Shown: one piece after another, positions 11,159-54,545 of the stretch
How the letters are laid out: the number at the start of each line of letters is the position of its first letter
How positions within the stretch are numbered: position 1 is the stretch's first letter
NCBI GenBank assembly: GCA_963759245.1
Contig: CAVWYN010000003.1
Coordinates: forward strand, 896,672 to 960,671
Direction of reading: 5' to 3'
From: Vulcanimicrobiota bacterium
GTDB taxonomy: Bacteria > Vulcanimicrobiota > Vulcanimicrobiia > Vulcanimicrobiales > Vulcanimicrobiaceae
Length of the DNA: 64,000 bases
Position numbers and translations under genes: made by a program
The notes under the pieces: model-generated
What the model was told of the DNA's origin: nothing
The model's database searches: none
The model's input: only the letters and a program-made list of their open reading frames with translations

Positions 11159-11276
11159 GTCATCCTTCGACTCCGCTCAGGATGACACTGCTCCGCTCGG
11201 GATGACACTGCTTCGCTCGGGACGACACTAGTGGTACAATGGGAATCGGTCATCCTTCGACTCCGCTCAGGATGAC
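11159..11276 (+). repeat. REP-like locus: two hairpins plus a 3x20-bp tandem arm repeat
   Basis: gtcatcc-TTCGACTCCGCTCA-ggatgac at 11159-11186 and 11249-11276. ctccgctcaggatgacactg / ctccgctcgggatgacactg / cttcgctcgggacgacacta lie in tandem at 11171-11230. Confidence 0.85.
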
Positions 11277-11299
11277 AATGAAAAAGGAGGGTTTGCCGA

Positions 11300-52857: not shown

Positions 52858-52935
52858 GCGCCCGTAGCTCAAACTGGATAGAGCAGGGGACTCCTAAGCC
52901 CAAGGTTGCCAGTTCGATTCTGGCCGGGCGCACCA
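52858..52935 (+). tRNA. tRNA-Arg (anticodon CCT)
   Basis: Hand-folded cloverleaf: acceptor GCGCCCG/CGGGCGC, D arm GCTC/GAGC, anticodon loop CTCCTAA, T arm GCCAG-TTCGATT-CTGGC, encoded CCA. The anticodon stem has only three central G-C pairs. Confidence 0.8.
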
Positions 52936-53035
52936 TGCTTCGACTCCGCTCAGCATGACAGTGGCAGCTCCGTCCTTCGTCCTGCCTGCGCTCAAGGATG
53001 GCAGGTGTTGCGCGCCTTCGCTAAAGGCGGCTGCT
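52934..53035 (+). repeat. REP-like hairpin cluster abutting tRNA-Arg
   Basis: CATGC-TTCGACTCCGCTCA-GCATG, whose 5' arm begins with the CA of the tRNA CCA end. Followed by related hairpins (ccgtcctt...aaggatgg; gcctt-cgcta-aaggc). Confidence 0.75.
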
Positions 53036-53155
53036 TCCTTATAAAGGGCTTCCTGGCCGAGGCGACCCGGGCAGACGGGTCTACGAGGGACTCCGCTTGC
53101 TTCCTAGGTGGTGGCCGTTGCGGCCCGCCGGGTGGTATGCTAGCATGAACCTTGG

Positions 53156-53179
53156 AACGGACCGGCGGTCCGTTTTATT
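53156..53179 (+). terminator. terminator-like hairpin 20 nt upstream of rpmG
   Basis: aacggacc-ggc-ggtccgtt followed by a T-rich tract (ttttatt). Either the tRNA-Arg unit terminator or an rpmG attenuator. Confidence 0.45.
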
Positions 53180-53199
53180 CATGTTGTGGTAGACTACTG

Positions 53200-53364
53200 A
53201 TGGCAAAGAAAGAGACGCGCGTGGTGGTGGTTCTGGCCTGCACGGTGTGCAAGCGCCGTAACTACAACACGCAGAAGAACAAATCGAAGACGACGGACCG
53301 GCTGGAGCTGAAGAAATACTGCCGCTTCTGCCGCAAGCACAACCCACACCGCGAGACCAGATAG
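53200..53364 (+). CDS. rpmG: 50S ribosomal protein L33
   Basis: [54 protein letters not shown], 54 aa with CxxC...CxxC. Conserved position before tRNA-Trp and secE. Confidence 0.95.
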
Positions 53365-53372
53365 AAGAGCGG

Positions 53373-53448
53373 AGGGCGGTAGCTCAATTGGTAGAGTCCT
53401 GGTCTCCAAAACCAGTTGTTGCAGGTTCGAGTCCTGTCCGCCCTGCCA
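53373..53448 (+). tRNA. tRNA-Trp (anticodon CCA)
   Basis: Hand-folded 76-nt cloverleaf: acceptor AGGGCGG/CCGCCCT, anticodon arm CTGGT-CTCCAAA-ACCAG, T loop TTCGAGT, encoded CCA. Confidence 0.95.
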
Positions 53449-53474
53449 CCCTTCGACTCGGCTCAGGGTGACAA
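53447..53474 (+). repeat. REP-like hairpin abutting tRNA-Trp
   Basis: CACCC-TTCGACTCGGCTCA-GGGTG. The 5' arm begins with the CA of the tRNA CCA end. Confidence 0.8.
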
Positions 53475-53489
53475 TATGGAAGTGAATAT

Positions 53490-53714
53490 TTGGTGAACGA
53501 ACAGCAGAAGAGAACGGCTCAGTCGATGGCGGGCGGCGATTTCGTTCGCGGCGTCATCGCGGAGCTGCGCCGCGTCACGTGGCCGACGCGCGACGAATGG
53601 ATCTCGGCTACGGTGCTGACGATCGCGCTGGTCGTGGGCATCGGACTCTTCACGTTCGTTGTCGACCAGCTTTTCGGCTGGCTCTTCAGTCTGATCCATC
53701 CCGCGACGGGATAA
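53490..53714 (+). CDS. secE: preprotein translocase subunit SecE
   Basis: FVRGVIAELRRVTWPTRDEW followed by a single TM helix. Conserved position before nusG. TTG or GTG start. Confidence 0.85.
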   Translation: MVNEQQKRTAQSMAGGDFVRGVIAELRRVTWPTRDEWISATVLTIALVVGIGLFTFVVDQLFGWLFSLIHPATG

Positions 53715-53724
53715 CCCAATAGTC

Positions 53725-54445
53725 ATGTACGATATCGAGAATCAAGAGCTCGGGACGGCCGAGCCGCCGCACGAAGAAGCGATCATCGACGACACCCAAA
53801 TGGGCGACGTCGCCGGCGCGACCGAAGCGCCGCTCGCCGAGGAGGCGCCTCAATTCAGAGGCCGAGCCCGGCGCTGAGCTGGAGGCCGAGGCCGCTCCGG
53901 CCAAGCCGAAGGACAACCGGAACTGGTTCGTCGTGCACACGTACTCCGGGTACGAAAACAAGGTCAAGGCGAATCTCGAGCGCCGCATCCATTCGATGGG
54001 CATGCAGGACAAGATCTTCCGCGTGCTCGTTCCCATGGAAGACGAAGTCGAGTTCAAGGACGGCAAGCGCAAGATCACGCCCAAGAAAGTCTTCCCGGGC
54101 TACGTGCTCGTCGAGATGATCATGGACGATCAGTCCTGGTACGTCGTGCGCAACACGCAGGGCGTGACGGGATTCGTGGGAAGTCCGGGGCCGGGCGAGA
54201 AACCTGTCCCGCTGCAAGACAAAGAGGTCAAGACGATCCTCAAGCAGATGGGCATCGAGGCGCCGAAGCTCAAGATCGACTTCAAGAAGGGCGACCGCGT
54301 CAAGGTGACGTCGGGACCGTTCTTCGACTTCACCGGCGTCGTCGACGAGATCGCGCCGGAGAAGGAGCGCCTGCGCGCGCTCATCTCGATCTTCGGGCGC
54401 GAGACCCCGGTCGAGTTGGAGTTTTTCCAGGTAGAAAAAGTCTAG
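53725..54445 (+). CDS. nusG: transcription termination/antitermination factor NusG, with an apparent +1 frameshift near 53857
   Basis: NGN ([15 protein letters not shown]) and KOW ([20 protein letters not shown]) motifs. No canonical start (ATG/GTG/TTG) precedes the NGN strand in the main frame. The acidic N-terminal extension starting at ATG 53725 is in the -1 frame and stops at 53875. Confidence 0.8.
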
Positions 54446-54460
54446 TCAACGTAAAACTTC

Positions 54461-54545
54461 GTGTCATCCTTCGACTCCGCTCAGGATGACACACGCGCTT
54501 GTCCTTCGACTGCGGCGCTCCGCGCCTTCGCTCAGGATGACAAGC
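54461..54545 (+). repeat. two-hairpin REP/BIME-like composite between nusG and rplK
   Basis: gtgtcatcc-TTCGACTCCGCTCA-ggatgacac (9-bp stem), then cttgtcc-TTCGACTGCGGCGCTCCGCGCCTTCGCTCA-ggatgacaag. Confidence 0.85.

Follow-up and report, generated by a model that had tools for sequence, protein, structure and literature searches.

Within the 64,000-nt window analysed here (assembly GCA_963759245.1 of a Vulcanimicrobiota bacterium, contig CAVWYN010000003.1, positions 896,672-960,671 of the forward strand), the genes for tRNA-Arg(CCT) and tRNA-Trp(CCA) each end in a short hairpin that shares bases with the encoded CCA. Its NusG relatives assign the window to Eremiobacterota, within a Cybelea/Baltobacteraceae-like group. 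The analysis identifies both hairpins as copies of a DNA repeat with a fixed strand orientation, which resembles repetitive extragenic palindromic (REP) sequences, and not as signals belonging to the tRNAs. The genes and the units docked on them are:

52858-52935, + strand: tRNA-Arg(CCT) gene (ARAGORN; Rfam tRNA model, 57.5 bits), with discriminator A52932 and encoded CCA at 52933-52935 (ARAGORN, Rfam)
52934-52960, + strand: docked unit at tRNA-Arg (sequence; exact loop match), with 5' arm CATGCT (52934-52939), loop TCGACTCCGCTC (52940-52951), 3' arm AGCATG (52952-52957) and tail ACA (52958-52960)
53373-53448, + strand: tRNA-Trp(CCA) gene (ARAGORN; Rfam tRNA model, 66.6 bits), with discriminator G53445 and encoded CCA at 53446-53448 (ARAGORN, Rfam)
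53447-53473, + strand: docked unit at tRNA-Trp (sequence; loop match; 36 of 65 related species have the orthologous copy in the same register), with 5' arm CACCCT (53447-53452), loop TCGACTCGGCTC (53453-53464), 3' arm AGGGTG (53465-53470) and tail ACA (53471-53473)

The initial annotation had noticed that a hairpin 5' arm begins inside the encoded CCA of both genes, and the sequence, ARAGORN and Rfam agree on this: the CA of the CCA supplies the first two stem bases at both tRNAs, and the remaining arm bases differ. The arms it described (CATGC and CACCC) are present but too short, since with the closing T-A pair counted both stems comprise 6 bp (CAUGCU/AGCAUG and CACCCU/AGGGUG) around a 12-nt loop, and the conserved portion extends 3' as TGACA in both copies. 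Both tRNA ends therefore have the layout CCA-xyz-TTCGACTCSGCTCAG-z'y'x'-TGACA, with the outer stem pairing from the CA of the CCA; the tRNA-Arg end reads ...GCGCA-CCA-TGC-TTCGACTCCGCTCA-GCA-TGACA (xyz = TGC), and the tRNA-Trp end ...CCCTG-CCA-CCC-TTCGACTCGGCTCA-GGG-TGACA (xyz = CCC). The tRNA-Trp discriminator G53445 is able to pair with C53472, over a C.A mismatch. Random intergenic placement would hit two tRNAs at the identical base with an estimated probability of the order of 1e-6 (given ~10-13 copies per 64 kb), or ~1e-3 if YCA sites alone are eligible. A derivation of the core from a tRNA 3' half (T-loop-like TTCGACT, 5 + 7 nt, then A and CA) was considered and rejected, as a T-stem is impossible and the Rfam tRNA model does not respond to it.

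The docked hairpins are 5'-truncated versions of a canonical element, GTCA-YCC-loop-GGR-TGACA, which is abundant and found in a single orientation in this Eremiobacterota genome; in the docked copies the initial GT is replaced by N73-C74 of the tRNA. With 0-1 mismatch allowed, the 15-nt loop occurs in seven copies on the + strand of the window and in none on the - strand. Away from the tRNAs the loop lies at positions 2044, 3726, 11166, 11256 and 54470, where the 5' arm comprises at least GTCAYCC. The copies delimited in the window are:

2034-2088, + strand: canonical copy, with a stem of 11 bp and a 3' arm duplicated in tandem (loop match, sequence)
11159-11290, + strand: two copies with tandem 3'-arm repeats in between (loop match, sequence)
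52972-53003, + strand: second, degenerate copy past tRNA-Arg, GTCCTTCG...GCTCAAGGATGGCA (sequence; like long-form copies of relatives)
54461-54492, + strand: canonical short form, GTGTCATCC-TTCGACTCCGCTCAG-GATGACAC, in the nusG-rplK spacer (loop match)
54500-54542, + strand: long form with an inner GGCGC/GCGCC hairpin within the loop (sequence; relatives' copies)

As RNA, the canonical copy (54458-54492) is predicted to fold at -15.5 kcal/mol (z -4.4). The long form (54500-54542, and many of the related loci L130-L213) contains a nested second palindrome, GGCGC-N3-GCGCC, which gives it a hairpin-in-hairpin appearance.

Orientation is strongly biased: across 85 loci (the window and 84 relatives) the count is 155:5, with the operon strand favoured. 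GC skew is positive across the whole window and all window copies are on the + strand, so the units lie on the strand with leading-strand sequence. In 74 of 77 Eremiobacterota copies TGAC is followed by A, and the minus strand thus starts TGTCAY. The nusG-rplK spacer of the same operon often carries copies too, at variable positions, and units are also found within a coding sequence and antisense to a gene end. Beyond this phylum, many bacterial phyla (L001-L120) share an identical core TTCGACTCCGCTCAG, next to three flanking base pairs that vary freely yet stay complementary, and the core is also present in viral contigs of 31-48% GC (L279-L290); such conservation of a core is unusual for a REP-type repeat.

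The tRNA-Trp locus provides the clearest comparison of filled and empty sites. Our set comprised 88 related loci around rpmG-tRNA-Trp-secE-nusG, ordered by a five-gene tree. The unit is present in 36 of the 65 distinct ingroup loci and absent from 29, and it is found in none of the ~20 outgroup loci with a readable spacer; every filled tRNA-Trp locus has the same CCA+3 register. The distribution is patchy, in that empty loci such as L145 and L175 lie next to filled sisters in the tree and retain the ancestral CCA-GTCTTCGGAAGTGAAC spacer. Partial deletions of the unit (L151, L162 and L173) and an array of six tandem 3'-arm units (L137) also occur. In L178, L194 and L195 a decayed unit of 24-25 nt sits between the CCA and an intact ancestral spacer, GTTTTTGGAAGTGAAC; the insertion, which runs from xyz to TGACA(A), lies exactly 3' of the CCA and is accompanied by neither duplication nor deletion. 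Overall, the tRNA-Trp junction exists in two or three forms with differing right junctions, and the CCA is encoded in all relatives, filled and empty alike. The possibility that the arms are inverted copies of the target was rejected, because the empty tRNA-Trp site predicts arms other than those observed.

At tRNA-Arg, no docked unit was found among ~50 relatives in the nusG-anchored set, many of whose tRNA-Arg(CCT) genes lack an encoded CCA; in the nearest relative (L213, 96% identity) synteny breaks off at ~53107, which leaves no tRNA-Arg for comparison. The comparison with related genomes that the initial annotation had called for yields relatives without the hairpin at tRNA-Trp and at tRNA-Arg. 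Taking the window and the collection together, tRNA-Arg(CCT) carries at least three alleles: TGC/GCA in the window, CCC/GGR in L247, L250 and L272, and a form with a gap of 2 in L276. These three alleles, with the differing right junctions at tRNA-Trp, support independent events. As a separate observation, the sequence 3' of tRNA-Arg(CCT) is hypervariable from relative to relative (window 52936-53200; L130-L217), and close species differ in whether the CCA is encoded.

The same junction recurs well beyond this operon. In two collection scans anchored on the tRNA T-loop plus CCA, with tRNA ends confirmed by ARAGORN, the gap between CCA and TTCG was 3 nt in 19 of 23 tRNA-adjacent matches; the four exceptions have gaps of 2, 7, 9 and 9 nt, and both 9-nt cases are doubtful members. 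A tRNA-Asn in L126 likewise has a gap of 3 nt. Non-tRNA matches to the same patterns have gaps spread over 0-12 nt, which makes the 3-nt register a property of the junction and not of the search. Docked tRNAs comprise at least 10 species (Trp, Arg-CCT, Ser-CGA/TGA/GGA, Gln-CTG/TTG, Glu-CTC, Asn and Met), with hosts that include Eremiobacterota, Peribacteria, Falkowbacteria (candidate phyla radiation) and a Thermodesulfovibrionales metagenome-assembled genome. The discriminator is G in 8 of 11 distinct docked tRNA species, so that the end GCCA is one base off the canonical GTCA. A further scan of the collection, for CCA-NNN-loop without selection for tRNA, matched at least 120 stretches, and the matches listed include Bacteroidota, Cyanobacteria, Acidobacteriota, Verrucomicrobiota, Planctomycetota and Gammaproteobacteria. 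Two Acidobacteriaceae loci (L125 and L129) have tandem duplications of ~100 nt, in which the 3' end of tRNA-Ser, from T-loop to CCA, is joined by a spacer to a larger relative of the element.

Genes for single-domain GIY-YIG proteins of 90-110 aa (Pfam PF01541) are directly flanked by the same loop core in other phyla, in 8 of 12 gene contexts, namely L005, L059, L255 and the loci of P0011, P0014, P0152, P0186 and P0178, the latter five on contigs from Bacteroidota and Desulfobulbaceae. The other four contexts (L016, L089, P0006 and P0088) have no such core nearby. Core hairpins lie on both sides of the gene in L059 (Flavobacterium bizetiae), and in L255 a tRNA-Gln ending in CCA is followed by a unit and then by the nuclease gene. 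A protein search for GC-rich GIY-YIG relatives showed a very large, highly conserved family, with no Eremiobacterota among the names listed from the top 120; NCBIfam holds no model for the flanked proteins. Two side observations concern these genes. Contigs of 860 nt from several samples (L299-L304) carry a GIY-YIG gene and four hairpin units and are circular permutations of one another, with a period of 719 nt plus a k-mer overlap of 141, which suggests that the GIY-YIG/hairpin cassette has a circular or tandem form. In a Flavobacteriaceae lineage (L305-L307), a hairpin-flanked GIY-YIG gene lies between ssb and recQ, genes of single-strand DNA metabolism.

A precedent for such an arrangement exists in the NTS/SRM repeats (head HGTCWY), which are single-stranded DNA (ssDNA) substrates of ~94-aa GIY-YIG nucleases named Ssn (Chenal et al., 2025, Nat Commun; PMC11893778). 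Ssn binds the NTS/SRM hairpin as ssDNA, on one strand only, and cuts a few nucleotides upstream; the ssn genes are flanked by NTS/SRM repeats (PMC11893778). The core described here flanks GIY-YIG genes in the same manner, and a hairpin-binding ssDNA nuclease of the GIY-YIG type is therefore, by analogy, the most likely agent.

We thus posit that a REP-like unit is laid down 3' of (G)YCA/CCA, probably by a hairpin-binding ssDNA GIY-YIG nuclease acting in trans, and give this explanation as a whole a probability of about 60%. It starts from what is observed: a register that recurs from tRNA to tRNA, units that are present in some species and absent from others, a biased orientation and, outside this phylum, an association with nuclease genes. 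The unit proper would consist of a variable triplet xyz (TGC or CCC here), the core TTCGACTCSGCTCAG, the complementary triplet and a TGACA end. Placed directly 3' of a ...(G)YCA tetranucleotide, it would have its TGAC pair with the target, completing the stem; canonical copies follow GTCA, of which the tRNA ends GCCA and ACCA would be near-cognates. As the tRNA 3' end presumably tolerates insertion without harm, units would land on the CCA repeatedly and persist there. This (G)YCA target rule is suggested by the tRNA-Trp comparison and the anatomy of the arms. The single orientation on the G-rich strand suggests a process acting on ssDNA during replication, and in this genome the agent would likewise be a GIY-YIG nuclease supplied in trans, with its nick repaired by copying another unit. 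The mechanism is at the level of DNA, and its link to a nuclease is probable.

Several observations weigh against this explanation. Interspecies recombination blurs the number of independent gains at tRNA-Trp, which is also the only clean comparison of empty and filled sites; non-tRNA sites lie in fast-evolving spacers, the flanks of which are too diverged to show a pre-existing GTCA. Among the unselected CCA-NNN-loop matches listed, 0 of 124 were at a tRNA, and an enrichment over other CCA sites was not seen. As for the enzyme, neither the window nor ~0.5 Mb of Eremiobacterota loci yielded a GIY-YIG or a Y1 transposase gene. The closest structures in PDB to the flanked nucleases are UPF0213 proteins (1zg2 and 1ywl), and these nucleases are not proven members of the Ssn clade (cd10448). 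The published SRM pattern, HGTCWYN(0-2)YYVSBRHN(0-5)WNVSBRGN(0-2)RNCYNB, has 0 matches in three elements (the two docked and one canonical); in the window it has one unrelated match, against 0.8 expected in shuffles.

The initial annotation had offered two readings of the junction, a preference of the element for tRNA 3' ends or recruitment of the hairpin as a processing or termination signal, and the former is the better one. The same CCA+3 register at many tRNAs, the varied alleles and the clean insertion after CCA in three species speak for such a preference at the level of the junction; an excess over other ...YCA sites, by contrast, was not seen, with no tRNA among the unselected copies counted above and with frequent copies in the nusG-rplK spacer.

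An untargeted origin, which we consider unlikely, would have an abundant repeat fill the intergenic DNA of this lineage by slippage, template switching or gene conversion, with only those tRNA-adjacent copies that spare the tRNA surviving; the 2- to 4-nt overlap with the CCA would then be microhomology with the GTCA end, and neither an enzyme nor a target rule would be needed. The frequent and variably positioned nusG-rplK copies fit this account, as do the lack of tRNAs among the 124 unselected copies listed and the lack of a local enzyme gene in the window and the Eremiobacterota loci, and slippage is evidently active, as shown by tandem 3'-arm arrays and microhomology deletions (L151 and L162). 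However, the register is too uniform for it, with a gap of 3 favoured over any other position by ~20:1 in the first 12 nt after the CCA, and the identical junction is shared by distant phyla and by 10 or more tRNA species; moreover, the 155:5 orientation and a 15-nt core conserved across phyla, including viral contigs of 31-48% GC, point to specific recognition.

Docking by a Y1 HUH transposase (IS200/IS605-type or RAYT, the REP-associated tyrosine transposase) is a decidedly unlikely alternative. The unit would then be a non-autonomous element of the REP or PATE (palindrome-associated transposable element) type, inserted 3' of a tetranucleotide in the lagging-strand template. IS200/IS605 elements characteristically insert immediately 3' of a short target without duplication, show a strand bias and end in a hairpin, and the duplication-free insertion, the strand and replication bias and the hairpin end described here fit them. 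In addition, some REP families are linked to RAYTs (PMC3733652). Nevertheless, no Y1 HUH transposase gene that shares the element's hairpin ends was found in ~2 Mb of loci bearing the element; the sole Y1_Tnp gene there (L026 500-1170; RAYT-like, Pfam E 4e-9) has a different REP hairpin, of the GTAG type, on its flanks, and the same genome also has the TTCGACTCCGCTCAG unit. The GTAG head is absent from our element, the genes that its core flanks are GIY-YIG and not Y1, and TGTC/CGTC-tagged REPs reportedly have no dedicated transposase (PMC3733652). ORFs (open reading frames) between inverted pairs of the element (L030, L033, L050, L085 and L094) were considered as transposases and proved to be ordinary genes.

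A function at the RNA level, in which the hairpin sequesters the CA during pre-tRNA 3' processing, terminates transcription or stabilises a neighbouring transcript, appears very improbable. The features that bear on it are:

53153-53177, + strand: terminator-like hairpin with T-run in the tRNA-Arg/rpmG interval (consensus scan: 11 pairs plus TTTTATTCATG)
53200-53364, + strand: rpmG, ribosomal protein L33 (ORF; Pfam Ribosomal_L33 on orthologues)
53490-53714, + strand: secE (ORF; Pfam SecE on orthologues)

The stem triplets do co-vary (TCC/GGA 18 times, CCC/GGG 11 times, TGC/GCA once), although mismatched intermediates are tolerated (CCC/GGA five times). REPs elsewhere are known to stabilise upstream mRNA (PMC3733652). 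A metatranscriptome contig with 1 mismatch in 240 nt spans tRNA-Trp, hairpin and secE, consistent with their co-transcription, though DNA carry-over is possible; secE starts ~17 nt past the tRNA-Trp hairpin, which places the unit within the secE 5' leader. Against such a role, the hairpin is missing at the orthologous tRNA-Trp in 29 of 65 species, including sister taxa, and is half-deleted or has decayed in others, so the tRNAs appear not to need it. The docked copies are predicted to fold weakly as RNA (tRNA-Arg, -8.6 kcal/mol, z -0.4; tRNA-Trp, -9.4 kcal/mol, z -1.4), and neither is followed by a T-run. A consensus terminator scan called neither of them; it called the separate hairpin at 53153-53177, 218 nt past tRNA-Arg, which is likely to be the real 3' end of the tRNA-Arg transcript. 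Cleavage at the CCA would split the stem, leaving the hairpin in neither product, and the same units occur within a coding sequence and antisense to a gene end. A hairpin that is dispensable, freely decaying, weak, without a U-tract and apparently read through does not support the processing or termination reading. Around the docked hairpins, Rfam (E<=10) reports nothing but the two tRNAs.

Retro-insertion, in which a tRNA 3' CCA-OH or a nascent DNA end primes on the unit's minus strand (CA-TG pairing) and the product recombines into the tRNA gene, is extremely improbable: its predicted product would match the observed junction and orientation, and the encoded CCA of tRNA-Arg(CCT) is variable and missing in the window's nearest relatives, but no reverse transcriptase was found nearby, tRNA-Trp encodes its CCA in every relative, filled or empty, and canonical copies after GTCA require no tRNA.

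Downstream of secE, the secE-nusG interval (53715-53932, ~220 nt) contains an ORF of 50 aa in another frame, and the nusG ORF has 170 aa. The orthologous gap is ~280 nt, with no called gene and almost never a hairpin unit; it may represent a conserved leader or an unannotated NusG N-terminus. Metagenome contigs over the region show no clean excision joints at the hairpins.

Should placement by a GIY-YIG nuclease 3' of (G)YCA/CCA be correct, one 15-nt core would join three subjects hitherto kept apart, namely REP-like repeats without a transposase, the recently described hairpin-specific ssDNA nucleases and the long-known liking of mobile DNA for tRNA 3' ends. It would also supply a testable target rule (a unit 3' of GYCA/CCA without duplication) and a cheap assay of repeat multiplication, and nuclease-hairpin pairs would be candidate programmable ssDNA tools. 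The junction misleads gene callers and tRNA finders, through hairpins, spurious ORFs and an "encoded CCA" that is possibly derived from the element. On a broader view, which is tentative and which we think doubtful, the unit and its ~100-aa GIY-YIG nuclease would constitute an undescribed pan-bacterial minimal mobile element that uses TGAC as a built-in guide to (G)YCA and homes to the CCA of tRNAs, with bare units spreading in genomes, this one among them, from which the nuclease may have been lost.

Comparison with known systems places the element close to several families. A literature search gave no match for its sequence or for its typical translated peptides, and docking at tRNA CCA ends goes unreported in the literature searched, including the two papers on related repeats (PMC3733652; PMC11893778); the word tRNA does not occur in the Ssn paper (PMC11893778). 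With REP/BIME/REPIN repeats and their RAYTs, and with PATEs of IS200/IS605, the element shares the form of a small palindrome in intergenic DNA, compensated stems, mosaics and partial copies in tandem, a strand bias that fits ssDNA chemistry, and insertion next to a short target without duplication. Of the PATE-type features, those of insertion and orientation are seen here: insertion after CCA without duplication (L178, L194 and L195), the 155:5 orientation and positive GC skew. It differs from REP/REPIN-RAYT systems in that the head is GTCA/TGTC instead of GTAG or GTGG and that no RAYT gene is flanked by this repeat, the Y1 gene of L026 having a different hairpin.

The palindromes tagged CGTC or TGTC, found in several phyla without a dedicated transposase (Di Nocera et al., 2013, BMC Genomics; PMC3733652), include Neisseria dRS3 and Rickettsia RPE (PMC3733652). 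Our element has in common with them a TGTC tag at one terminus, next to a stem beginning with A and then T/C, presence in several phyla, the possibility of copies inside genes, and no known dedicated transposase. Their stems are of 8-9 bp, their loops of 4-5 nt, and their untagged end has a CCA tail that is unpaired; here the conserved loop is long (12-14 nt) and the untagged end is GAC, or the GCC of the tRNA; theirs are head-to-head dimers, and ours are single one-way copies. Thus the tag of this superfamily is present, its stem start is matched in part, and its loop and tail are not.

The likeness to NTS/SRM repeats extends further. Both are short, fixed-orientation hairpin repeats that number from tens to hundreds of copies, and both have a ...GTC-A-Y head beside the palindrome. 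Both can lie on one or both sides of a single-domain GIY-YIG gene of ~90-110 aa, which for the core described here is seen in phyla other than Eremiobacterota. The minus strand of our element, TGTCAY, fits the SRM head HGTCWY in 74 of 77 Eremiobacterota copies, and both docked copies end in TGACA. In contrast to SRM, in which loops of 0-5 nt are not essential, the loop of 12-14 nt is here the most conserved part, the GTC head pairs with a GAC tail, and the nucleases flanked by the element resemble UPF0213 structures. The element and its GIY-YIG nuclease are therefore a sister arrangement to Ssn/NTS, as distinct from a proven member of it.

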